From a virus: 38,230 nt of DNA. Under the pieces are notes generated by a model, which did no database searches, was not told the origin of the DNA, and saw only the letters and a list, made by a program, of their open reading frames with translations. The stretch spans positions 1 through 38,230 of the IMG/VR virus record IMGVR_UViG_3300045988_172120. One strand, given 5' to 3'. This document shows positions 1 through 38,230 of this stretch, piece by piece. A program made the position numbers and the translations under genes. Position 1 is the first letter of the stretch; every line of letters begins with the position of its first letter.

Positions 1-55
1 GGAAGTGCCTAGGAGGGGCACAAATAATGAGTGACATTTTCGATATTGTGGTGGA
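1..55. repeat. Left terminal inverted repeat, 55 bp, perfect reverse complement of 38176..38230
   Basis: Bases 1-55 (ggaagtgcctaggaggggcacaaataatgagtgacattttcgatattgtggtgga) equal the reverse complement of the last 55 bases. Identity stops at position 56 (a versus c). It contains the SD AGGAGG and the ATG at 27. Confidence 0.97.
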
Positions 56-593
56 AAACAGCCAAGACGACCTTGAAGTAATCAAGGGTTTCATGCTCAC
101 ATGTGGTGAAACCATCGCCCCAGAAGTGACCGAATCCATGGGGCGTCGCCCTAGCGGCATTGATCGGTGGGGTGGTGATGTTTTCGTCACCCAGGGCAAA
201 CTGTCCCTGTCGGTGAATGTGCTATATGACTTCCCATGGGGCTCCACCGATGCTAACAATCACCCGGTTGTGATCGAAGCCACACTACGTGAGGAAAACC
301 CCAGCGAGATTGTTGTGCTAGGATCAATTCTGCTGAATGACCAGCGCGACATGGATACGATCGAATGGTTGTTCGATGGTTTGGACTGGAACCCCCAATC
401 ACAAATCAAGTTCATTCGCAAGTCCGCACGCAACGCGCGTATCGAATACGTGTGCGAAACCCTCAATCTTTGGCAGATGGAAGCCCGCTGGGAAAACCAA
501 ACTCTAGGGGAAAAAGCGCGTACACACTACCGCCGGGCATACCTGGCCAAAAAAGGTGAGCTCACAGAACTACTCGAAAATGATGTGATGTAA
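27..593 (+). CDS. Hypothetical protein (left end gene, N-terminus MSDIFDIVV shared with right end gene)
   Basis: 188-aa ORF with SD AGGAGG 8 nt upstream of the ATG. The first 9 codons lie inside the ITR. No motif recognised. Confidence 0.8.
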   Translation: MSDIFDIVVENSQDDLEVIKGFMLTCGETIAPEVTESMGRRPSGIDRWGGDVFVTQGKLSLSVNVLYDFPWGSTDANNHPVVIEATLREENPSEIVVLGSILLNDQRDMDTIEWLFDGLDWNPQSQIKFIRKSARNARIEYVCETLNLWQMEARWENQTLGEKARTHYRRAYLAKKGELTELLENDVM

Positions 594-609
594 AACACGG
601 CGTGGGGGT

Positions 610-639
610 TTGACGCCGGGGCAAGCCACACTGTATAAT
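610..639 (+). promoter_or_regulatory. Sigma-70/SigA-like promoter TTGACG-N18-TATAAT
   Basis: ttgacg at 610..615 and tataat at 634..639, in the gap between the 27..593 and 709..1194 genes. It is homologous to the cassette at 9327..9422. Confidence 0.65.
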
Positions 640-664
640 AGGGGCATAGGGTAAAGCAGAAAAG

Positions 665-683
665 ACCAACCAAAAGGGTTGGT
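665..683 (+). promoter_or_regulatory. Conserved 5-prime leader stem-loop (accaacc-aaaag-ggttggt)
   Basis: 7-bp stem read directly. The leader 666..711 aligns with 9381..9425 over ~45 nt, including the SD and ATG. Confidence 0.55.
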
Positions 684-708
684 GCCCTAAGGTTCAAGGA
701 GGACCACC

Positions 709-1194
709 ATGCAAGCACAGTACCAAAATCAGGCACCCGCCACCATCGAGGGCCTGATCCGTAAGGTTTTTGAGGGCGAAGACTTCTACAGCTTTTCGGT
801 TGTGTATGAGGATTCCCCCGCGGTTGATGTTTTCGGCTATGGGGCCTTTGAAAAGCAAATCGGCGAGGGCTTGAATGCTGGCGTGTCGTTTGAAACCGGT
901 ATCGACTACACCGACGCCCTAGATCACCTGACTGGCCGTTTCGCCCTCAGCATTGAAGGGCAGCGCTGGGGTGATTACGTACACTACGAATGGTTCGTGT
1001 CCACGAAGCCGGGCGATGAGGAAATGCAAGATTTGCTGCGCTTGTTCCCCAAGGCTGAGGAATGCCTGAAAATCGCTGCAGCCCAGGTTCATAGCGCTAT
1101 CCTGGAATACCCCGAGGATTACACCGATGCGGAGGTGGCCCATGCGAAAGTGATGCTGGAAGCCCTCGACCCCAACGGTGACCTGGACTACTAA
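709..1194 (+). CDS. Hypothetical protein, arm paralog family A
   Basis: 161-aa ORF with SD AAGGAGG. It shares motifs with the 37408..37854 and 36495..37013 products (TIEGLIRKVFE / TMETLVKSIFE; YTDAEVAHAKVMLE / YTQAEVAEIGKQNLE). Confidence 0.85.
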   Translation: MQAQYQNQAPATIEGLIRKVFEGEDFYSFSVVYEDSPAVDVFGYGAFEKQIGEGLNAGVSFETGIDYTDALDHLTGRFALSIEGQRWGDYVHYEWFVSTKPGDEEMQDLLRLFPKAEECLKIAAAQVHSAILEYPEDYTDAEVAHAKVMLEALDPNGDLDY

Positions 1195-1258
1195 AAACAA
1201 TTTTCGGAACGGGGGTGGCCAATGGTTGCCCCCGAACCGGAAAAGTGAGGATAACACT

Positions 1259-1750
1259 ATGGTTACAATCCCAGAAATTGAGCAGCGCCTAGCCGATTAT
1301 GTGATCCGTGACCCACGGCAGTTCATGCCTTCGGATTATGATTTGCGTGGTGTTGCGGAAATGATTGCCGACACAAGCCTTGAAGACGGCGACCTGCACA
1401 ATCCCGATTGGGTGAAAGCGGTGAAACCCCTGCTCCAATCACATTTTGCGAAGATCAACATTTTTGATTTGGATTGGGAGTTTGTTCAGCACGGCGATGA
1501 TGTGATGCTGGTTGCGGTTTTCCACAGCCTGTGGGGGGATCAGGATATTGTAGTTGACCGGTGGGGCGATATTCATACCCGTATCGGTGCAGATTTTAAG
1601 CCAAGCCGACTGATGTGGTCTGAGGAGTACCATTCCCATGGTGACCATTTTGATGAGATTTTGGTCACATCGTGGCGGTTCATGGTTGACCGCCTGCGTG
1701 ACCGGCTTGAGGAGCATATTGAGCAGAATAATATTGGTGGAGGTGCATAA
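1259..1750 (+). CDS. Hypothetical protein
   Basis: The ORF track gives 1178..1750. I trimmed it to the in-frame ATG at 1259, which is preceded by the SD-like GTGAGGA. Product is acidic and W-rich. Confidence 0.7.
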   Translation: MVTIPEIEQRLADYVIRDPRQFMPSDYDLRGVAEMIADTSLEDGDLHNPDWVKAVKPLLQSHFAKINIFDLDWEFVQHGDDVMLVAVFHSLWGDQDIVVDRWGDIHTRIGADFKPSRLMWSEEYHSHGDHFDEILVTSWRFMVDRLRDRLEEHIEQNNIGGGA

Positions 1751-1751
1751 A

Positions 1752-2387
1752 ATGTCAAGTGTTGAAGACCGGTTCCCGCTACCGGAAAAGTGGTTTAATG
1801 ATTTCGATGATTTGGTGGAGGAACAAATCCGCCTCATCATTGGTGATGATGTGAAGTACATTTCCGAAAGCGCTTTGGAGCAGTTTCTTGCTGCCAAGCC
1901 GGTTAAGGGTGATGGGCTTCACATTGGCCTGAAGGAAAGCGTGCGTGGCGATTATCGGAAGTTTTTGCAGATGCTTGACGCTTGCGATATTCGTAATCTG
2001 CATTTGCCTATCAATAATGATGTTGATGTCCATGAATATAATCGAACATTTTATGCGAATAATGAAAATGTTTATGATGCGTTGGCCACTAGTTATTATG
2101 AGCTAGAATGGCCTGGTGGGTCAACCGTGTGGGTTGATATGAGCTATGACACGGGTTCGGGCGAATCGCGGTTCCTACTGTTTGGTGATAAGTTCGGGCC
2201 TGGTGATAGCCGGGTGCATGATGTTCGGTTGGATACCGACCGCCACCCCAATCATGCGGTTTTGTTGGATAAGATCTTCCCAGGGTGGCGCGAACAAATG
2301 TTCGATCCGTTCGCGAAAGGTTGGGAGAAGCAGATTGCGGAATGGCGTGCTGAAGACGAAGCCGAGGAAGAGAAAGAAGAAGTTTAA
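1752..2387 (+). CDS. Hypothetical protein, C-terminal region paralogous to the 33784..34362 product
   Basis: In-frame ATG at 1752 preceded by GGTGGAGGTG, 1 nt after the upstream stop. The C-terminus AVLLDKIFPGWREQMFDPFAKGWEK matches ALLDMIIPGWRDVLAEFDAKCEK in the right-arm protein. Confidence 0.75.
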   Translation: MSSVEDRFPLPEKWFNDFDDLVEEQIRLIIGDDVKYISESALEQFLAAKPVKGDGLHIGLKESVRGDYRKFLQMLDACDIRNLHLPINNDVDVHEYNRTFYANNENVYDALATSYYELEWPGGSTVWVDMSYDTGSGESRFLLFGDKFGPGDSRVHDVRLDTDRHPNHAVLLDKIFPGWREQMFDPFAKGWEKQIAEWRAEDEAEEEKEEV

Positions 2388-2393
2388 CGGTTA

Positions 2394-2420
2394 GCCCCCT
2401 ATTATGGGGGTGGGGTTTGG
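2394..2420 (+). terminator. Weak hairpin (ccccc-tattat-ggggg) after the 1752..2387 gene
   Basis: 5-bp GC stem at 2395..2399 / 2406..2410, followed by only a short T run (gggtttgggg). Confidence 0.3.
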
Positions 2421-2484
2421 GGCCAGGGCAGGCAACACTATTGGGGGTAACATTTTCAGAAAGGAAGAATCGTGGCAATGATGT

Positions 2485-3030
2485 GTGGTGAAAATGATTA
2501 ACTTTTTCAGGAAGGCAAACAGCAACCTTCGGCACTCGGGCCTAGGGGCCTATGTGAACACCTTCATATTCGCAGTAGAAGGCCACCTTGAAAAGAGAGA
2601 GTACAATGATGTGATCCGCAATTTAATGACACGGCGAGATTGGGAAGGGGATACTATGCGCAACCAGAAGTTTACACATGATTTCGCCTGTGAGGTATTG
2701 GCCCCGTTGCTGGCTGTAGCGGTTGAGCAAAATTCACTCTTTGATGCGTGTAGGCCAAAACCCCCAGAATATAGTACGATCCGCGAAATGTATTCCTGGA
2801 TTTTTGAAACCGTGCAAAAGTATTGCAAAAAGTATGGGCTTGATTACGAAAAACTGCTTGCCGAAGTCAGGAGGCAAACCCCGCTAGGTGATGACGGTTT
2901 CATCTCCCCCGGCTACCATATCAGCACCTGTAGGTATAATAGTGCTCTGTCTGGCGGGTTTTTCTTAGACTGCCCTAAAATAGATTTTAGGGACTGCAAG
3001 GATTCAGGGGTACGGCATGTTAGTCTCTGA
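2485..3030 (+). CDS. Hypothetical protein
   Basis: 181-aa ORF. Start is uncertain (GTG 2485 or ATG 2494). No motif recognised. The region looks more AT-rich by eye than its neighbours. Confidence 0.6.
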   Translation: MVKMINFFRKANSNLRHSGLGAYVNTFIFAVEGHLEKREYNDVIRNLMTRRDWEGDTMRNQKFTHDFACEVLAPLLAVAVEQNSLFDACRPKPPEYSTIREMYSWIFETVQKYCKKYGLDYEKLLAEVRRQTPLGDDGFISPGYHISTCRYNSALSGGFFLDCPKIDFRDCKDSGVRHVSL

Positions 3031-3097
3031 GATTGTTGCACTGGTTTGCGGAATGATTGTTACTATTGTGTTCCTTTGGGATAGCCGCAGGTGACCC

Positions 3098-3496
3098 ATG
3101 CTACTCCATGATAAGATTGTTTGGTACGATAAAGTTTTACGGCACCACGCTGTCCGTATGCTTTCCGGTTTTTATAGCCGTGATGGTTGGGCACACGTGT
3201 CACGGGTGTATGGTGTGGACAATGAGCTACTGAAACTCTTAACAAAACCTAAGTCCATGACAGTTGAAGAGAATAAAATGATTCTTGACAGCATGGTGTA
3301 TGCCGCAAGGGAGCTTGCAAGGTTTCACATGTTGCACATGTCGGACGGCTGCAGTCTGCGGTGGTACGCCAAGCAGTTCAGTGTTTACGGAAAACCCTGC
3401 AAAGATGGTCTAGGGAGAGATTGTGAGATATTCGTCATTAAGTCACGAAAGCCGGGCGGGCTGGTTAAAGCTAAGAAAATCGTACTTGACCGCTAG
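3098..3496 (+). CDS. Hypothetical protein
   Basis: 132-aa ORF with ATG preceded by GCAGGTG. Its last 74 nt overlap the next gene in another frame. Confidence 0.55.
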   Translation: MLLHDKIVWYDKVLRHHAVRMLSGFYSRDGWAHVSRVYGVDNELLKLLTKPKSMTVEENKMILDSMVYAARELARFHMLHMSDGCSLRWYAKQFSVYGKPCKDGLGRDCEIFVIKSRKPGGLVKAKKIVLDR

Positions 3497-4073
3497 CGAA
3501 ATGGGCAAGCTCGGCCCGAAAGCCGTCAAGGCCATGGTGAACCTCGGTGAGGAAAAATGGGGCGACACACCCCCCTTCCGGGGGAACGAATACACGGAGT
3601 GGGGCAACATTCGGGAACCGGTTATTGTGGGAAAACTATTGGAGGCGTGGATTCCGGTTGAACATAACACAAACCTTTTAGTGTCCACAACCCACCCGCT
3701 GTTTGCTGCCACACCCGACGGCTTGATTCCCGGCAAGAATGCTACGGTGCAGATTAAAACCGCCGGCACGAAGCGTTTCTTTGATGATGTGGCGCACATG
3801 CCGAAGAATTACATGCGTCAATGCCAATGGGAAATGCTTATTACCGATGCGGAAAAGTGTTTGTTCGTGGTTGAGGAAAGGTTGGAGTCGTTCGATGGTT
3901 TCCAGCCCGGTAGGATCACCACCATGACCGTACCCCGTGACGATAAACTTATCGGCGCCCTGGTGGAAACGGGCATGCGGTTTGTGAACCTGGTTTTGGA
4001 CGGCACCATCAACCACCCCCACAATGAGGCGTTCAGGCGGTTCAAAGCGGAAGCTGAGTTTTTCTATAAGTGA
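3423..4073 (+). CDS. YqaJ / lambda-exonuclease-like recombination exonuclease (PD-(D/E)XK fold)
   Basis: N-terminal GWLKLRKSYLTASEMGKL, then NIREPVIV, HPLFAATPDG and VQIKT match the YqaJ viral recombinase pattern. GTG start is preceded by GGGAGAG. Confidence 0.75.
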   Translation: MRYSSLSHESRAGWLKLRKSYLTASEMGKLGPKAVKAMVNLGEEKWGDTPPFRGNEYTEWGNIREPVIVGKLLEAWIPVEHNTNLLVSTTHPLFAATPDGLIPGKNATVQIKTAGTKRFFDDVAHMPKNYMRQCQWEMLITDAEKCLFVVEERLESFDGFQPGRITTMTVPRDDKLIGALVETGMRFVNLVLDGTINHPHNEAFRRFKAEAEFFYK

Positions 4074-4087
4074 GACACGAAAAATAA

Positions 4088-4117
4088 CCCCCGGTATAAA
4101 AGCCGGGGGTGTTTTTA
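4088..4117. terminator. Bidirectional intrinsic terminator where the two arms converge
   Basis: Stem cccccgg (4088..4094) / ccggggg (4103..4109) with an 8-nt loop. It is followed by tgttttt on the plus strand and a T-rich run on the minus strand, between convergent stops at 4073 and 4144. Confidence 0.85.
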
Positions 4118-24037: not shown

Positions 24038-24112
24038 TGCCCACCAGGGCAAACGCCGTTTAAGCCATGTAGCAGCCCCATAGACGGGGTGAGCATTAAG
24101 AATGAACAATCA
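24038..24112. repeat. Conserved ~75-bp intergenic element, copy B
   Basis: Lies in the 159-bp untranslated gap between the TerL stop (24166) and the portal start (24006). It aligns with 9832..9906. Confidence 0.8.
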
Positions 24113-24165
24113 TATAGGCCATGACCAGATAGGCTGTCACACGGCAAACTATGGCGTGACCAAAA

Positions 24166-25725
24166 TCACAAACCACGACGCTTACGCGAAATACGCATCC
24201 TAACCTTAGGGGCACGCCGAACATCCACCTCAGCAGGCTTATAATCCGCAGCCAACAACAGCGCAAACGTTGCAGCAATGATAGGGCACCCAGCCGGATT
24301 ATTCCGCTTCAACGCCTTACCCGAATCCTGAATATCCCTCTCAGAAACCACCGACAGGGCATCAACCCAACGCGAAGACCCATCATGCTTGATCTTCCCA
24401 TCACGCCACAATTGCATAAACAACATATAGGCTTTGGAAACCTCAGTCTTATTAAACCTCGTGGGCTCCAAACCCCGCTGCTCAAACAACACCGTGCACG
24501 TCTCCGCAACACCCTTCTGGTCATAAGCAAACCCAATCGGGTCACGAAGCCCAATCACCCGCTCAATATCACCAACAACCCCCACACGGTCAAACTCATC
24601 ACGGGGGGCAAGGGACAAAAACCATCTCCCATCAGCCATTTTCTCCACGCTTACAAGCGCGCAGCCAACAGCCCCCAAGTCAACATCAATGCCAACAGCA
24701 GACACAGCCCCGACACTACACAGTACGGGATCAGCCACTGTAGCAGCTTCCCAATCGGAATAATCAATAATTGGTGTAAAGTCTTCATCGTCTTCATCAT
24801 TGAACCAGTCGCCCCAACCCAGGCATTCGACACCAAAATTGATCCTACCAATCTCAGTGTTGAGTCGTTTCATTTGTTTTCTAATCTTCGTCTCATCCAT
24901 GATGAACCCGTACGATGGGTTCGCCAGGATCCAGGTTTCTTCAACATCAGGTTTAGCATCACCAGGCGCACGGTATTCTGCCAGGTAGATAGGGTCAACA
25001 GGGTCAGGCCCCGCCAACGCTTGACGCCTCATTGCCGAAATGACCCTGCCGTCCTGGTGGGCTTTGAAAGCCTTATGAACGGCTGAGGTAATATAGAAAA
25101 ACTGCGGATCATCCGCCGCCTGCGTAGTGAAGTTAATAGCCGCCACCGAACCATCAGTCAGGTTATAGGCCTCATCATAGACAACACATGATATTTTCGT
25201 GATACCACGGGCCGTATCATCACCCCGGGTTTGAAAAAAAATCACCCCGCCACACGAAAACTCAAGCACACCCTTGCCCTGCGAACCTGAAAAACGCGTA
25301 AGCATACCAGCCAGCGGGGGGAACGCTTTCACAACCCCAAGCAAATTCAAATAAATACTATTAGCCGTATCCCACAGCTGGGCCGTGTATAGTATGCGCC
25401 AACCGTATTTTATGGCACGATAAAGGCAGATAAGAGAAATGCCCAAACTCTTACCATTCTGCCTAGGAATGATAAGAATGTTGTCAGAGTGAACGTACCG
25501 GCCCACCTCATTCCTGCTGCACATGGCCAAAATATCGTACTCCTGCCACGGCATCAACTCCACCCCAATAATCTTAGCGAAAGCAATAATCTCCCTACCC
25601 TCGCCATGATCGTATGCGGGGGCCTCGCGCAAATTATACGGTGTTTGTTTACCCCTTAAAGTTTTGTGAGCCGATGATTTCGGAAAAGGCTCTCTCTTTA
25701 CCATCGACATAGTAGCTGTCACCAT
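24166..25725 (-). CDS. terL: Terminase large subunit
   Basis: Walker A-like IIPRQNGKS, Walker B-like VVYDEA, a C-terminal nuclease-like region, ~519 aa. The exact start is uncertain (ATG at 25725, 25710 or 25704). It overlaps the TerS ORF by 56-77 nt. Confidence 0.88.
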   Translation of the reverse strand: MVTATMSMVKREPFPKSSAHKTLRGKQTPYNLREAPAYDHGEGREIIAFAKIIGVELMPWQEYDILAMCSRNEVGRYVHSDNILIIPRQNGKSLGISLICLYRAIKYGWRILYTAQLWDTANSIYLNLLGVVKAFPPLAGMLTRFSGSQGKGVLEFSCGGVIFFQTRGDDTARGITKISCVVYDEAYNLTDGSVAAINFTTQAADDPQFFYITSAVHKAFKAHQDGRVISAMRRQALAGPDPVDPIYLAEYRAPGDAKPDVEETWILANPSYGFIMDETKIRKQMKRLNTEIGRINFGVECLGWGDWFNDEDDEDFTPIIDYSDWEAATVADPVLCSVGAVSAVGIDVDLGAVGCALVSVEKMADGRWFLSLAPRDEFDRVGVVGDIERVIGLRDPIGFAYDQKGVAETCTVLFEQRGLEPTRFNKTEVSKAYMLFMQLWRDGKIKHDGSSRWVDALSVVSERDIQDSGKALKRNNPAGCPIIAATFALLLAADYKPAEVDVRRAPKVRMRISRKRRGL

Positions 25726-26132: not shown

Positions 26133-26846
26133 CTAGCCCCAAAAACCTGAACCGCCACCACCATCAGGGGCGACAGTCGCGGGTTTCTTACGCATACTCT
26201 CATAGTATTTATCAACACCAAACATGAATGATTTCGGGCGCAGGCGAGCACACCGCTCACGAACAATCGCCTCACCAGGATCAATACGCTTGAACTCGCA
26301 CCCGGCTTCCGCATAGCGCAACAACGCTGATTCGCTGGGGGCGGAGTGAATAATATACACATCCGTCTCGGACTGTTTCAAAGCTTCCTTAATAAGTAGC
26401 AGTCTAGCTTTCCTCACCAGTCTTGCCACCACTTGCGGGTAATCATGATTACCGATAGGGTAGCCGCCAATAAGGTTGCATAGATGGTCATAGTCAATCC
26501 TTATATCCCCGGGTTTCGCATGCTCACTAACCCACGTGGTTTTACCCCCACACGGGGGGCCCATCACAACAATCTTCCGAACCGAACCGGTAGTAACCTC
26601 ACCCCCGCCACGCTGACTGTTGCAAGTGAAATGCAACAAGCGTTCCGGTAGCTCACCATTCTTTGCCCCATGAAAATTTAGGTGGTCAGCAGCCAACGGC
26701 TTACCGTCAAAATTTTTCACAGCAGAAGCATACATTGGCCTGCCACACCACGGGCACGGGGTACCATCACGCAAACGAAGCAACAAACCCTCACGGGCAC
26801 GCTGGTGCATCTTACCATAGCCCCTAGCGCTAGCTGATAAACCCAT
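26133..26846 (-). CDS. HNH endonuclease fused to a P-loop NTPase/kinase-like domain
   Basis: N-terminus: GYGKMHQRARE ... CPWCGRPM ... ADHLNFH ... LLHFTCNSQRGGG (HNH). C-terminus: VVMGPPCGGKTTW (Walker A) ... DVYIIHS (Walker B-like). Confidence 0.75.
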   Translation of the reverse strand: MGLSASARGYGKMHQRAREGLLLRLRDGTPCPWCGRPMYASAVKNFDGKPLAADHLNFHGAKNGELPERLLHFTCNSQRGGGEVTTGSVRKIVVMGPPCGGKTTWVSEHAKPGDIRIDYDHLCNLIGGYPIGNHDYPQVVARLVRKARLLLIKEALKQSETDVYIIHSAPSESALLRYAEAGCEFKRIDPGEAIVRERCARLRPKSFMFGVDKYYESMRKKPATVAPDGGGGSGFWG

Positions 26847-33783: not shown

Positions 33784-34362
33784 TTAGCTCACTGGCACAT
33801 CCTCACACTTCGGCTGGGACAACGGGTCGTTTCCGGCAAGAAACTTCTCGCATTTAGCATCAAACTCCGCCAACACATCCCGCCAACCAGGAATAATCAT
33901 ATCAAGCAAAGCGTCAGAATCAGGATCACCGGAACAAGATTCAATACCAGCCCACTGGTGATCCGCGCCATGACCAATATCAAGGAACAGGGATGACTGG
34001 TCATCGTCGTGTTCGCGGTGCATGCTGAAATAGTACACGCAGTGCCCGCCCGCCGCCCGGGGTAGCATCACGTACTGTGAGAAAAACCAACTGTCATCCT
34101 CACGGCGGTAGAACCGCATTTCCTCAAACCGCACAGCATCTTTGCGCAGGTCGTGCACCCGCGCCCCAACCCACGCCTGTGGCAACAACTCGTTGATCGC
34201 CGTCTTGCCCTCGGTGGTGTCGGGGTCGAGAATCCACTTATCGTTTTCAATGTCAAGCACCCGATCATAGAACCAACCATAAGCAATATACCAGCCAGGC
34301 TTGTGGGGGTAGTATTCTTCTAGCAGCCGGTCAGCCCGGTTTATCTTCTCAAACGTTGCCAT
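33784..34362 (-). CDS. Hypothetical protein, paralogous at its C-terminus to the 1752..2387 product
   Basis: 192-aa ORF whose ATG lies 7 nt downstream of a TATAAT box. See the paralog evidence under 1752..2387. Confidence 0.8.
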   Translation of the reverse strand: MATFEKINRADRLLEEYYPHKPGWYIAYGWFYDRVLDIENDKWILDPDTTEGKTAINELLPQAWVGARVHDLRKDAVRFEEMRFYRREDDSWFFSQYVMLPRAAGGHCVYYFSMHREHDDDQSSLFLDIGHGADHQWAGIESCSGDPDSDALLDMIIPGWRDVLAEFDAKCEKFLAGNDPLSQPKCEDVPVS

Positions 34363-34399: not shown

Positions 34400-35161
34400 T
34401 CAGACTTTACGCCACAACCACACGGCCCCATCGCCCGTGGTGGAATATTTCTCACCCGGGTGGTTTTTATCCATATACAAAAGCGTTGCAATCTCCTGAT
34501 CCGCGTTCTTGCCGATACGGATTTTTGCGGCCAAAACTTTCTCAACATCCTGCTTGAACGCGGCCATTGCCCGGTGGCGCCAAGGGGCGATAGCATCCAG
34601 CTGCCGTTCGCCCTCTTCGGTGCCGTCAGAAATCCCCATGTTAGTCCACGCGGTGTCCGGCACACCATCATCCTCACGCGAATAACCGCCATGAAAAGTG
34701 GTAATGAACTTCCCCTCACCGATCACATCACCAACAAGCAGGTAGTGGAACGCGATATGCGGGTGGTCATCGTGTGGAACATCCAGGTCCGGGTTGATGA
34801 AACTGATTCGGCGAACCAAAGACTTTTCACCATAGAACGAAACAACACCATCGCCACGGGATAAGAACATTTGCCCAGGCTGCACCTTAGTGAACCCACC
34901 CCCATTATTGGGGTATCGGATATCCGACTGCTTCAAAACCTCGATAACCTCATCCTGGTCATCACCCCAGTAGTATAGTCGCCATTTCTCCGCCTCATCA
35001 TCAACCAGGCGATGGTAAGCATGGTCATCATTGAAAAGTTCCTTCGGGGTTTCGGGGCAGTGCTTCTTGCGCAGCTGCTCAATCACCCAATACTTTTCAC
35101 CCAGGAAAGCATCATAGTGATCTTCCTCACCCTCGCAAACATCAAGATAAGTGTCCGTCAT
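34400..35161 (-). CDS. Hypothetical protein
   Basis: 253-aa ORF with ATGA overlap onto the upstream gene. No motif recognised. Confidence 0.8.
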   Translation of the reverse strand: MTDTYLDVCEGEEDHYDAFLGEKYWVIEQLRKKHCPETPKELFNDDHAYHRLVDDEAEKWRLYYWGDDQDEVIEVLKQSDIRYPNNGGGFTKVQPGQMFLSRGDGVVSFYGEKSLVRRISFINPDLDVPHDDHPHIAFHYLLVGDVIGEGKFITTFHGGYSREDDGVPDTAWTNMGISDGTEEGERQLDAIAPWRHRAMAAFKQDVEKVLAAKIRIGKNADQEIATLLYMDKNHPGEKYSTTGDGAVWLWRKV

Positions 35162-35659: not shown

Positions 35660-36073
35660 TTAGCATTCGTAGGCGATAGCATCAAACAAAACACCCTCGG
35701 CACGCTTTAGCCTACGCACTAAATCATCATCCGAAAGCAGGGGGATTACCGCATTAGCATAGGGCACGATTACCCCATACGCAAAAGTGAACACATCAAA
35801 ATCATCAAAATTATTGAAAACAGCCATCGCATTTTCGATAAGCATTTCCGCAATCTTCACAGGGTCCGACTCCCCCAACCACGGGGGTACCGCGGCTCCC
35901 GCCAGGAACCGGAGCTTTTCTTCCGAAACCCCCACATCCTGCCCCGCATCCTTCAGCAGCGACAACTGCAACACCAAGGGGGTGGCCACAACCCAATCCG
36001 GCACCCCCGCTTTCGGGAAAACATCAACCTGTTTTTTCAGGTATTCCTTAAACTCCGCCAAGTTCATGTTCAT
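35660..36073 (-). CDS. Hypothetical protein, tandem paralog of 36070..36495
   Basis: Shared motifs: FPKAGVPDWV / FPRGGIPEWV and AAVPPW...DPVKIAEML / AAVTPPW...TPVEAAQIM. Confidence 0.8.
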   Translation of the reverse strand: MNMNLAEFKEYLKKQVDVFPKAGVPDWVVATPLVLQLSLLKDAGQDVGVSEEKLRFLAGAAVPPWLGESDPVKIAEMLIENAMAVFNNFDDFDVFTFAYGVIVPYANAVIPLLSDDDLVRRLKRAEGVLFDAIAYEC

Positions 36074-36495
36074 AGCGACCCTTTCAAAACTTCATCCACC
36101 ATTTCCAACACGAGCATCATATTAGCAGCAAACTCAACCTTAGAAAAACCATCAGGCATCAGACGGAAAATCACTTCCGCCTCAGGAATGAGCACGCTCC
36201 GCATGCGGCTAATCTCCGTGGGGCTCATCGCACCATTCGAAACCTGACGGATATTCGCGGCCATGATTTGCGCAGCCTCAACAGGCGTTTTAGCGGAATG
36301 CCACGGGGGCGTGACAGCCGCCACCAGGGCAGCATAATCACCCACACCCATGCCCTCGATCGGGTAGCCGTAGCGCTCCAAAGAATCAACCTCATGCAAC
36401 AAAACCTGTGCTTCCACCCATTCGGGTATCCCGCCGCGGGGAAAATTCTTCACCCGCTCAAGCACACCAGCCTGGTATTCCTGTAAGGTTTCCAT
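36070..36495 (-). CDS. Hypothetical protein, tandem paralog of 35660..36073
   Basis: 141-aa ORF with ATGA-type coupling at both ends. See the paralog motifs under 35660..36073. Confidence 0.8.
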   Translation of the reverse strand: METLQEYQAGVLERVKNFPRGGIPEWVEAQVLLHEVDSLERYGYPIEGMGVGDYAALVAAVTPPWHSAKTPVEAAQIMAANIRQVSNGAMSPTEISRMRSVLIPEAEVIFRLMPDGFSKVEFAANMMLVLEMVDEVLKGSL

Positions 36496-37013
36496 TAATC
36501 AAATCCTCCTAAGATTTTTTGCATACGTTCAAGATTTTGTTTCCCAATCTCCGCCACCTCCGCTTGGGTATACGCATCATGTGGGATTATTTGCCCGGGT
36601 GGCAGAGTGTAGCATCGTTGCAGAAACTTGTCAAGCGTGTTCTTAGCCTCCGGCCAAACCGATAGAAGATCATCACCCGCAGGCTTACCGTAAGAAATGC
36701 GCCACCGGAAAACCAGCCGGTAGGCGCGCCCCCTAACGTCCTGGTGAACCCGCACGACAACTTCCATCTCCTGCTCATCGAACGGGGCCATCACATCAAA
36801 CTCTACCGACACTCGCAGCGTGACCTGACCCCTGATACTGCCCTGGATAGGCCAGGTATCAACCCCGTGCACCCCTAAATCGCTCATCGGATCATGCGGG
36901 TTATTGACACCGCCGTATCTCAGGACACCACCCCCACCAATATTTTTCTTCAGGAAATTACGCATTGTGTGGGGGATTCGCCCCATCACTTTAATGCTAC
37001 CAGGCACGATCAC
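36495..37013 (-). CDS. Hypothetical protein, arm paralog family A
   Basis: Start trimmed to the GTG at 37013, 6 nt after GGAGGAGG. Motifs are shared with the 709..1194 and 37408..37854 products. Confidence 0.7.
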   Translation of the reverse strand: MIVPGSIKVMGRIPHTMRNFLKKNIGGGGVLRYGGVNNPHDPMSDLGVHGVDTWPIQGSIRGQVTLRVSVEFDVMAPFDEQEMEVVVRVHQDVRGRAYRLVFRWRISYGKPAGDDLLSVWPEAKNTLDKFLQRCYTLPPGQIIPHDAYTQAEVAEIGKQNLERMQKILGGFD

Positions 37014-37350
37014 GAAACTCCTCCTCCAAACATTCACGCGCATGCCGCGAAATGATATCATCAATCAAGCATAATCCCTCGGGGCTTTCCGCAAAAACAA
37101 CTTTGGCTGAACTGTCCTCGTGGTAAATATCAATGAAAGTGACGTAATTATCATCTCCGCCTTCGCAGCCGATGGATACCTCACACTCGCCAAACCGCTT
37201 TTTATACGTCAATCCGTACCAAAACCCATCATCAGAAGAAAGCGGCTCGGTGTAGCTGTTCTGCTCCCATGTGCCATCCCAAAGGTTTACCAGCTGGTCA
37301 CGAAGAAGGTCTTTCACCTCTTTAATGATTTGCATTATCGTATCTTCCAT
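36997..37350 (-). CDS. Hypothetical acidic protein
   Basis: 117-aa ORF whose ATG lies 7 nt downstream of TGGTATAAT. Confidence 0.8.
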   Translation of the reverse strand: MEDTIMQIIKEVKDLLRDQLVNLWDGTWEQNSYTEPLSSDDGFWYGLTYKKRFGECEVSIGCEGGDDNYVTFIDIYHEDSSAKVVFAESPEGLCLIDDIISRHARECLEEEFRDRAW

Positions 37351-37407: not shown

Positions 37408-37854
37408 TCACTCTGTGACGATTGCCACAAACTCTTGCAAATACTGGGCCGCCATAGGCTGGTCCAGCAACCACAGGTAAGTTTGGGCAATGAAACCATA
37501 CAAGGCGGGTTCACAACCAGGCCAGTACTTACGCAAACCCTGGGGCTCCAACACATCCTCAATGGTGATTTTCCACTCGATGCGCACCTCATCATAAAGG
37601 TGTCGGATATCGAGCCGCGCGGTCAAGGTGTGCATCCAGCATGGTTTAGTGGCGTCGCCCTCGAAAAGCACATCAAAATCGTAGGCCCCATACTCATCCC
37701 AGCATTCAACCCTCATGGTGGCGCGTCGGGTGCGCGGGTCGATGCCCTGGTGGAAGCTTGTTGATGCGTAGCCGTATTTCGGCATGTCGATTAGCTCGAA
37801 AATGCTTTTGACAAGCGTTTCCATTGTTGGGGGCACATGATCGAGTACTTTCAT
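37408..37854 (-). CDS. Hypothetical protein, arm paralog family A
   Basis: 148-aa ORF, second gene from the right end, mirroring the second gene from the left end (709..1194) with which it shares motifs. Confidence 0.8.
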   Translation of the reverse strand: MKVLDHVPPTMETLVKSIFELIDMPKYGYASTSFHQGIDPRTRRATMRVECWDEYGAYDFDVLFEGDATKPCWMHTLTARLDIRHLYDEVRIEWKITIEDVLEPQGLRKYWPGCEPALYGFIAQTYLWLLDQPMAAQYLQEFVAIVTE

Positions 37855-37856
37855 GG

Positions 37857-38204
37857 CTAAAACTCTCCTTCCTCATCATAGCAGTGGTCTTCCAGCCATT
37901 CCATGGCAGCATCCTCAAACATGCTCTTGATTAACCATAGTTTGCCACCCAAAATTTTGTCGATCTGCTCACGCTCATCCCATTTTTCCAACTCCAGAAT
38001 TTCGCCGCTGGGAAGATGCTCGATGGTCAGGCCAAGATCGTATTCATCGAGGATTCCGGTTGCCCAGATGAGAATTTCGTAATCCCCGACCGTGCGAGTC
38101 CAGGATAAGCGTATCCCTTCCTCGATGTCAGTTTCCACTGGTGCGGTTTCCCAGCCGTCCATGGTGAGGTTGACGTCCACCACAATATCGAAAATGTCAC
38201 TCAT
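37857..38204 (-). CDS. Hypothetical highly acidic protein (right end gene, N-terminus MSDIFDIVV shared with left end gene)
   Basis: 115-aa ORF. SD and the first 9 codons lie in the ITR. Roughly a quarter of residues are D/E by manual count. Confidence 0.8.
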   Translation of the reverse strand: MSDIFDIVVDVNLTMDGWETAPVETDIEEGIRLSWTRTVGDYEILIWATGILDEYDLGLTIEHLPSGEILELEKWDEREQIDKILGGKLWLIKSMFEDAAMEWLEDHCYDEEGEF

Positions 38205-38230
38205 TATTTGTGCCCCTCCTAGGCACTTCC
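38176..38230. repeat. Right terminal inverted repeat, partner of 1..55
   Basis: Read directly: tccaccacaatatcgaaaatgtcactcattatttgtgcccctcctaggcacttcc is the reverse complement of 1..55. Confidence 0.97.

Follow-up and report, generated by a model that had tools for sequence, protein, structure and literature searches.

The DNA under study is a viral sequence of 38,230 nt (IMG/VR record IMGVR_UViG_3300045988_172120, positions 1 to 38,230), hereafter called the window, whose two ends carry the same 55 nt in inverted orientation. These 55 nt are the inner edge of an inverted repeat of ~2 kb that brackets two unique segments. The explanation that we consider probable is that the window represents the long unique segment, U (~38.1 kb), of a siphovirus genome of ~44-45 kb with cos-type packaging and four parts, and that diverged gene families placed mirror-wise on the two arms of U are remnants of an inverted duplication. 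The order of the parts would be U, inverted repeat (~2.03 kb), short unique segment B (2-2.7 kb) and second repeat copy. The assembler would have collapsed the two copies of the repeat, and the contig would have been broken off 55 nt, or one k-mer, into each of them, leaving a false 'inverted terminal repeat' (ITR).

The ends of the window lie at the edge of a larger inverted repeat

The repeated ends are perfect inverted copies of each other (1-55 and 38176-38230), and each of them opens the first gene of its arm:

1..55, plus strand: inner 55 nt of inverted-repeat copy A, with a leader hairpin (GTGCC-TAGGAGG-GGCAC) that presents the ribosome-binding site (RBS), followed by the start of the left end gene (ATG at 27, first 9 codons).
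38176..38230, minus strand: inner 55 nt of inverted-repeat copy B, with identical leader, RBS, ATG and 9 codons; feeds the right end gene.

Besides these 55 nt, no further inverted similarity between the arms was detected at the nucleotide level. Fifty-five is the usual final k-mer of short-read assemblers. The length of the repeat equals the assembly k-mer length, and an equivalent pattern is found in L014/L053 and L023 (L-numbers designate related contigs). The comparison set consisted of 15 left arms, 15 right arms and 11 B-segment contigs, all from public assemblies. Many relatives, present as contigs of 38-39 kb, stop within ~100 nt of the window ends. Eight related contigs, however, run past these ends into one common sequence of ~2 kb, either on the left arm (L008, L010, L011, L015, L034 and L036, by 1.4-4 kb) or on the right arm (L019 and L042, by 1.5-4.9 kb). 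Whichever the arm, the extension is one sequence in one orientation relative to the first gene. Right-adjacent copies of the repeat are 77% identical to each other and 82-84% identical to left-adjacent copies of other genomes.

The extension of L010 consists of 2028 gene-free nucleotides (2007-4034) followed by segment B (1-2006), which harbors two convergent genes, B207 and B131. The inner end of these 2028 nt, L010 3980-4034, is where window positions 1-55 align. Segment B mostly assembles by itself, in contigs of 2.1-3.9 kb from 11 metagenomes. Perfect inverted termini of 584, 544 and 55 nt are present in three segment-B contigs, and both flanks of B map to L010 2007-2419, inverted, in L024, L026, L029, L030 and L032. 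Four contigs (L010, L019, L034 and L036) are each continuous from B via the ~2 kb into the first arm gene.

When relatives with both ends were compared, left/right identity was found to end at three different positions: 29 nt into the open reading frame (ORF), just before the ATG, or ~15 nt past the -10 box. From one relative to another, the repeat boundary is displaced by ~100 nt, and each contig ends exactly one overlap (55, 66 or 79-84 nt) outside its own boundary. Because the contig ends track the boundary at the distance of one assembler overlap, they reflect assembly breakage at the repeat edge and not a DNA end; and because the position of the boundary differs among relatives, the boundary moves. 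The repeat sequence is 75-84% identical between relatives, compared with 88-98% for core genes. A preliminary description of this DNA had presented the 55 nt as a true repeat, and not a chimeric join, located at the tips of a linear genome. The first part of this view was correct. The second part does not hold, as the length is that of the assembler k-mer, eight contigs read through, and neither terminal protein nor family-B DNA polymerase is encoded. The associated idea that the arms have diverged everywhere except at 55-bp tips had the scale wrong, as ~2 kb would stay identical.

The orientation of B relative to the left arm is opposite in L010 and L034. A hairpin telomere was considered and rejected because segment B, with its 2-2.7 kb of unique coding sequence, is no loop. 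A fold-back in segment B is found at the start of L036 (1-956), where positions 1-121 repeat 836-956 perfectly in inverted orientation and B207 points the other way than in L010; it could be either an assembly artefact or a real internal inversion.

Evidence for a probable four-part genome

The brackets of B and the brackets of U are one sequence, inverted, as seen in window 1-55/38176-38230, in the read-throughs on both arms and in the 544-584-nt termini of B. Two segments, U and B, both flanked by one inverted repeat constitute the assembly-graph signature of a four-part map. The four parts add up to ~44.2-44.9 kb, matching the 45,061 bp of Corynebacterium phage CL31 (MW582634), which is the closest described phage (39.7% identity in TerL), while U alone is 7 kb short.

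Plus-strand genes occupy positions 27-4073 of the window, and minus-strand genes run from 38204 down to 4144, the two sets being separated by the following feature:

4087..4110, bidirectional (no strand assigned): terminator-like hairpin at the point where the left arm meets the long minus-strand operon.

In Pfam and PHROG scans, the early and replication part of the minus-strand operon was found to encode small acidic proteins with no assigned role, ERF, a replication initiator, SSB, glutaredoxin, DnaB, an exonuclease and RusA. Its packaging and structural part encodes an HNH/terminase-like protein, TerS, TerL, a Mu-type portal, a ClpP-type protease and a capsid protein. The operon also holds a tape-measure protein of 2214 amino acids, an endolysin (Rv2525c-like glycosidase plus amidase) and a holin. 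The same scans, applied to all plausible ORFs of the window, detected no integrase, invertase, resolvase, family-B polymerase or terminal protein; and no serine or tyrosine recombinase domain was found in any window ORF nor in B207 and B131.

Judging from its predicted genes (TerL, HNH, portal, tape measure, DnaB and ERF), the phage is an ordinary cos-type siphovirus. Since terminase and HNH endonuclease are encoded, while terminal protein and family-B polymerase are absent, the DNA probably terminates at cos sites around 26 kb. The situation would be that of CL31, a siphovirus of 45,061 bp in which cohesive ends of 16 nt lie next to the terminase genes (PMC8002715). The HNH endonuclease encoded at 26133-26846 is fused to a terminase-small-subunit-like ATPase and adjoins TerS and TerL, like clg_01 of CL31, an arrangement that points to cos packaging and to DNA ends at about 26-27 kb. 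A stretch of ~134 nt between the portal and TerL genes (24038-24171) matches a second site in the tail-gene region (L010 14068-14201, for example) at 68-82% in every related left-arm locus, and constitutes a short dispersed repeat.

The best TerL match in the genome collection belongs to Corynebacterium sp. and reaches only 39%; scanning of the collection with the left-arm gene g709 and the TerL alignment revealed no prophage or complete copy. The host is therefore assigned to the actinobacteria only. A megablast comparison of 25 kb of the window with 50,697 phage records gave no match.

We infer that the two repeat copies are homogenised, and segment B inverted, by homologous recombination: exchange between the copies, using the phage's ERF, YqaJ exonuclease, SSB and RusA, would keep them identical and let B flip with respect to U. 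The opposite orientations of B are compatible with such flip-flop isomers, and are no proof of them.

Anatomy of the repeat

The ~2-kb repeat is gene-free, and one of its ends matches the other, inverted, at ~82%. Alignment of the two ends defines a module that contains an operator-like palindrome (TGTGA...TCAC), an extended -10 (TGTGTATAAT), a conserved start region (GTGTC[AC]GGTT[GC]A), the leader hairpin, a strong RBS (AAGGAGG) and the ATG. Four homologous copies of this start module, all facing outward, are present per genome: they serve the left end gene (E1L), the right end gene (E1R), B207 and B131. Four transcription units (left arm, right arm, B207 and B131) would thus start from near-identical signals, and the unit of the right arm would run on through the replication, structural and lysis genes.

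Scans for tRNAs and Rfam families found none in the repeat. Two conserved consensus promoters are present in its interior, and a block of ~430 nt, near-invariant in six genomes, lies 3' of a TTGACA-17-TATAGT promoter (L010 3641->3613):

L010:3185-3610, minus strand: ~430-nt block; equivalents at L019:4080-4504, L034:3258-3682, L036:3140-3569, L008:651-1075 and L011:789-1211.

Eighteen helices are predicted in this block, with 9 compensatory pairs compared with 4.3 +/- 1.4 in shuffled alignments (9 was reached in 0/500) and 0-2 in slid ones. No Rfam family matches it. On the grounds of six sequences only, the block is a candidate for a new structured RNA with two copies per genome.

Both repeat ends are adjoined by tracts with extreme G-richness on the outward-transcribed strand (L010:2090-2560 and L010:3730-3920). 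The tracts include (TTGGGG)-like repeats and a 17-nt tandem repeat (CCCCTTTGGCCCCCTGA x2.8), and several assemblies break inside one of them, at L010 ~2400-2550. Such sequences could form G-quadruplexes or R-loops, perhaps acting as an origin. A variable purine-rich tract is also present in the repeat.

A protein family shared by both arms

All the ORFs and motifs quoted in the preliminary description, which had proposed cross-arm paralogy, were found in place. Three of these ORFs had been assigned to a single family (family 1):

709..1194, plus strand: F1a (g709), left-arm member of family 1; 161 amino acids, isoelectric point (pI) 4.2; predicted fold of one helix, five antiparallel strands and three helices.
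37408..37854, minus strand: F1b (g37408), right-arm member of family 1; 148 amino acids, hypervariable.
36495..37013, minus strand: F1c (g36495), second right-arm member of family 1; 172 amino acids; two allelic types (62-64% or ~94% identity).

Pairwise BLASTP searches in a window database of ~54 proteins gave E values of 0.04-0.6 for the pairs claimed to be related (0.06-0.6 in family 1), which are not significant; the members of these pairs are nonetheless each other's best weak matches. Family alignments were then built from the arms and from database homologues, and all of them were compared by hhalign (190 pairs), with the unclaimed pairs as background. The two right-arm proteins are clearly related (g36495 and g37408, P=9.9e-10 over 129 columns). 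The left-arm protein matches each of them less strongly (g709 and g37408, P=8.6e-4 over 121 colinear columns; g709 and g36495, P=0.0034 over 132 columns). When the g709 family was compared with a merged right-arm profile, P fell to 1.4e-7, with a probability of 94% and 140 of 161 columns aligned. Reversed or column-shuffled profiles scored at most 21.8, compared with 50.1 for the actual match, and P was 0.04 or higher for all other families.

Structure predictions were also compared. AlphaFold models of g709 (predicted local distance difference test, pLDDT, 81.6) and g37408 (pLDDT 88.8, from an alignment without g709-family sequences) present the same order of elements, H-E-E-E-E-E-H-H-H, at nearly identical positions, in agreement with common ancestry; unrelated folds would have spoken against it. 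Foldseek searches gave no significant match for either model in PDB nor for the g709 model in BFVD. The nearest PDB neighbours of both models, identical CapZ chains, are non-significant, and a CapZ fold was rejected: with best E values of 2.4e-3 and 7.7e-3, template modelling (TM) scores of 0.29-0.35 and root-mean-square deviations of 16-19 A, the resemblance is restricted to a sheet-plus-helix architecture. Profile comparison and predicted folds together indicate that family 1 is one true family, homologous over its full length. As the similarity between F1b and F1c (P=1e-9) far exceeds that of either with F1a (P=1e-3), the data fit a left/right split followed by tandem duplication in the right arm.

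An additional profile match, between g709 and the left-arm gene g1752 (P=1.5e-10), was discarded as it derived from a fusion ORF and vanished when the rows involved were removed (P=0.23). The fusion is found in L015 (2198-3085) and L016 (727-1614), where a deletion equivalent to window 1004-1796 joins the g709 and g1752 frames into an ORF of 295 amino acids and removes g1178.

A C-terminal module, the end genes and additional paralogues

A second family had been proposed for a pair of genes, one on each arm. A neighbouring right-arm gene belongs here as well:

1752..2387, plus strand: F2L (g1752); 211 amino acids, pI 4.5; C-terminal LLDxIxPGWR block (residues ~166-196) common to F2a, F2b and B207.
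33784..34362, minus strand: F2a (g33784); 192 amino acids; homologue of B207; a 30-residue block links it to F2L.
34400..35161, minus strand: F2b (g34400); 253 amino acids; neighbour and paralogue of F2a, with the C-terminal block.

The similarity between g1752 and g33784 is confined to a C-terminal block of 30 residues (PNHAVLLDKIFPGWREQMFDPFAKGWEKQIA versus PDSDALLDMIIPGWRDVLAEFDAKCEKFLA) with 43% identity and an hhalign P of 5.9e-4. Its score is 30.0, and the maximum among shuffled controls is 19.1. Furthermore, the two proteins are reciprocal best non-self matches in hidden Markov model searches among 299 window ORFs (E=0.006 and 0.009). The block is thus the part of the claimed pairing that stood; the upstream match between GGSTVWVDMS and GGHCVYYFSM found no support. 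The C-terminal block is also present in g34400 (P=5.5e-4) and in B207, encoded outside the window, which aligns with g33784 over ~105 columns (P=5.9e-5). Merging F2a, F2b and B207 gave no stronger link to g1752. A C-terminal module common to F2L, F2a, F2b and B207 is probable on these alignments; full-length paralogy of g1752 is unproven.

The end genes had also been described as similar beyond the nine residues encoded by the repeat:

27..593, plus strand: E1L, first left-arm gene; 188 amino acids, pI 4.6; only the repeat-encoded first 9 residues in common with E1R.
37857..38204, minus strand: E1R, first right-arm gene; 115 amino acids, pI 4.05; 94-100% conserved across the clade.

This similarity disappeared once the repeat-encoded part was removed (P=0.26), and the score, 12.3, was below the shuffled maximum of 17.6. 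Matches of E1L with B131 (P=0.0013-0.007) and of E1R with F4 (P=0.002) are weak, below what may be considered established. Two other sets of paralogues are found in the right arm, the first of which had gone unmentioned in the preliminary description:

36070-36495 and 35660-36073, minus strand: F3 tandem paralogues; BLASTP E=1e-11, hhalign P=3.5e-9; the only clearly significant BLASTP pair.
36997..37350, minus strand: F4 (g36997); 117 amino acids; 0-3 tandem copies in relatives.

Gene order and variability of the arms

The order of genes in the left arm, conserved in the clade (15 left arms), is E1L, F1a, g1178, F2L, (g2485), g3098, exonuclease. In the 15 right arms, it is E1R, F1b, F4 (0-3 copies), F1c, F3, F3, g35158, F2b, F2a, ..., ERF. 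Segment B contains the convergent genes B207 and B131, with a family-2 member directly after the leader. Read outward from the repeat, both arms thus present a leader gene, family 1 and family 2. A mirrored arrangement in relatives, which the preliminary description had suggested looking for, is indeed found, as the order E1-F1-...-F2 occurs in 15 left and 15 right arms. The remaining features of the left arm are the following:

610..639, plus strand: promoter-like site TTGACG-18-TATAAT upstream of g709, conserved in L010 (4589-4618); consensus match only.
1178..1750, plus strand: g1178, conserved left-arm gene with no paralogue detected; the true start is probably downstream of 1178.
2485..4073, plus strand: remainder of the left arm, with g2485 (variable, missing in some relatives), g3098 and a YqaJ-type exonuclease gene (3423-4073).

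Nearly all arm proteins are strongly acidic (pI 4.0-4.9), and several are highly variable. Between genomes that share 94-100% identity in the adjacent E1R and 88-98% in core genes, the g37408 products reach only 33-38%, and two allelic types (~50-64% versus ~90%) are found for g36495, g36997 and g34400. Variability in the right arm looks like the outcome of cassette exchange or diversifying selection.

In the searches made, the families were private to the clade. Pfam and PHROG scans of the arm and B proteins gave nothing above noise. An exhaustive profile search with family 1 among 1.84 billion representatives retrieved 10 matches, all within the clade. Clade members only were found in a word-indexed search of 5.8 billion proteins (56 clusters for g709, 4 for g33784 and 9 for g37408), and CL31 has none of the arm families E1, F1, F2, F3 and F4. 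Only by inference may the arm proteins be viewed as early accessory factors, involved in host takeover or counter-defence, under diversifying pressure.

Alternative explanations

One alternative to the four-part map is a linear genome whose physical ends are 55-bp ITRs, as in protein-primed phages, with mirrored terminal gene sets and tips kept identical by selection. A genome of this kind would account for the perfect inverted repeat, for the many related 38-39-kb contigs that end near one place and for the presence of family 1 on both arms. However, the length of the repeat equals k=55 in the window and is 55, 66, 79, 80 or 84 nt in relatives; the boundary is found at three positions, and contig ends follow it; eight contigs read through the supposed ends; terminase and HNH endonuclease, typical of cos packaging, are encoded in a window lacking terminal protein and family-B polymerase; and CL31, the closest relative, has cos ends beside its terminase genes (PMC8002715). 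A true terminal ITR of 55 bp is essentially excluded, and we give this alternative very little credit. A different proposal would be that the ~2-kb sequence and B form a separate element (a satellite, a plasmid or a co-infecting phage) that shares the leader with the phage, in which case contigs spanning B, repeat and U would be graph chimeras and the repeat of the phage would be short. B does assemble mostly apart, and both repeat copies are never found on one contig. At least four independent assemblies obtained with different assemblers nevertheless join B, repeat and U (L010, L019, L034 and L036), B and the phage co-occur in one sample series, and B207 is a paralogue of F2a and F2b, which are encoded in U. 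Furthermore, B has no replication, packaging or integration genes, and the 38 kb of U fall 7 kb below CL31, the size of which is reached by the sum of four parts. A separate element is therefore improbable, though less so than a true ITR. The four-part map has weaknesses of its own. It is deduced from the behaviour of assembly graphs, as both repeat copies are spanned by no long read or single contig, and the identity of the two copies is seen directly only up to 584 nt of 2 kb. The two orientations of B may equally be arbitrary walks of the assembler through the graph, and not isomers. Finally, the repeat interior and segment B belonging to the window genome itself were not recovered, and are deduced from relatives with 75-95% identity.

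As for the families, matches between the arms might reflect chance or the composition of acidic, low-complexity proteins, so that no cross-arm families would exist. BLASTP values of 0.04-0.6 are no better than those of many unclaimed pairs, all the proteins are acidic, and for the end genes this explanation is correct. In family 1, it is at odds with a P of 1.4e-7 that stands out from reversed, shuffled and cross-family controls, and with matching, independent structure predictions; for F2L and F2a it is only partly excluded (P=6e-4). As a general explanation, we hold chance to be the least probable of all those considered. A more serious competitor is ordinary tandem duplication combined with illegitimate or modular recombination among early genes, with a coincidental mirror order. 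The right arm is certainly rich in tandem duplications (F1b/F1c, F3 twice, F4 in 0-3 copies, F2a/F2b), the end genes show no paralogy, and the two families that are shared, the only ones, match loosely in position (F2 comes fourth on the left, ninth and tenth on the right). Coincidence seems strained, however, when family 1 comes second after the leader on both arms, in all 15+15 cases, when a family-2 member directly follows the leader in segment B too, and when a mobile repeat boundary provides a ready mechanism to copy repeat-adjacent genes in mirror orientation. We therefore view this competitor as unlikely, yet the one that deserves most attention. Several observations weigh against an inverted duplication: tandem duplication plus translocation could give an identical distribution of families; no similarity is left between the end genes, though these too should have been copied; and the F2L link (30 residues, P=6e-4) fails strict correction for 190 comparisons, with a threshold of 2.6e-4. 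No database or fold match backs a function for the arm proteins.

On balance, cross-arm paralogy is real and ancient, with equal order outward from the repeat (leader gene, family 1, family 2). The notion that a whole terminal gene set was duplicated in inverted orientation survives in part: family 1 supports it, while the end genes are not demonstrable paralogues and g1752 and g33784 share just a 30-residue module. The most likely origin is inverted duplication across a moving boundary plus tandem duplication. The mirrored families would be remnants of an old event of this kind, across a drifting repeat boundary, after which the copies would have escaped conversion, undergone tandem duplication in the right arm and diverged fast.

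Implications and comparison with known systems

A practical consequence concerns genome completeness. Completeness tools would score the 38-kb contig as complete for its 'ITR', yet ~6.7 kb (15%) would be absent, comprising two repeat copies and two genes. Inverted termini with the exact length of a k-mer can be viewed as the signature of a collapsed internal inverted repeat, and dozens of public 38-39-kb contigs of this clade with 55-84-nt inverted termini would share the defect, each without ~6.7 kb. On the biological side, a repeat that has no genes and supplies one start signal four times would place all early operons under strict common control, and mirrored, fast-evolving, clade-private families at a mobile boundary may provide a testable phage model of how inverted repeats generate and diversify accessory genes. 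A broader picture, less likely than not, is that of a clade of human-associated actinobacterial siphoviruses with a four-part genome like those of plastids and herpesviruses. Their 2-kb repeat would be the control centre of infection: it would fire four early units, encode a conserved structured RNA and G-rich tracts (possibly an origin of the R-loop type), flip via ERF, exonuclease and RusA, and seed mirrored hypervariable counter-defence families by boundary migration, in the manner of the terminal 'accordion' of poxviruses and African swine fever virus (ASFV).

Plastids and herpesviruses are textbook cases of genomes divided by large internal inverted repeats into two unique segments that can invert. 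In the open-access literature we found no description of a four-part inverted-repeat layout in a tailed phage; the only examples retrieved from it were organelles and herpesviruses. CL31 resembles the phage described here in its single long operon (early, replication, terminase, structural and lysis genes), which converges with a shorter opposite block, and in a size equal to the inferred total; it differs in having no large inverted repeat, no segment B and no arm families. Like that of the window, the sequence records of phages phi29, Cp-1 and PRD1 begin and end with a short, perfect inverted repeat. Here, in contrast, a terminase is encoded, terminal protein and family-B polymerase are missing, and the ends are assembly breakpoints.

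The G segment of Mu and the C segment of P1, flanked by 0.6-kb inverted repeats and inverted by Gin and Cin, offer another parallel: a segment of ~2-3 kb in a tailed phage, bounded by inverted repeats, seen in both orientations (here, in different assemblies), and with coding sequences whose first codons lie in the repeat and whose remainder lies in the segment. Unlike those systems, neither the 38-kb segment nor B encodes a serine invertase or any other site-specific recombinase, the genes of B show no similarity to tail fibres, and the 2-kb repeat is non-coding and also feeds genes on its outer side. As genes are read outward from both ends of the repeat, with 0-9 codons inside it, inversion keeps each start with its own coding sequence.

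The termini of poxviruses and ASFV, with movable ITR boundaries, and the unique long and unique short (UL/US) segments of herpesviruses are comparable in carrying diverged, mirror-oriented families of paralogues beside inverted repeats. In poxviruses and ASFV, as here, repeat-adjacent families are among the fastest-evolving genes and vary in copy number by tandem duplication; the arms of the phage would work in a comparable way. No sequence homology was found between the arm families and those of poxviruses, ASFV or herpesviruses. These are eukaryotic viruses, in which the repeats are true physical termini (or have internal and terminal copies), while the repeat of the phage would be internal to a cos map.

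In layout and function, the proposed genome also resembles the quadripartite genome of plastids (isomerisation mediated by the repeat, boundaries that ebb and flow), differences notwithstanding. Plastid repeats are 10-25 kb long and contain rRNA operons, whereas that of the phage is ~2 kb, gene-free, and starts outward transcription at both ends; furthermore, the phage would be a tailed-phage replicon packaged from cos sites, and its possible isomerisation is read from assemblies and not from single molecules. What the two systems have in common is a pair of very unequal unique segments, each bracketed by one inverted repeat, with repeat copies that are identical within a genome though divergent between genomes, a boundary that shifts in close relatives, and a small segment that, in the phage, different assemblies show in opposite orientations.

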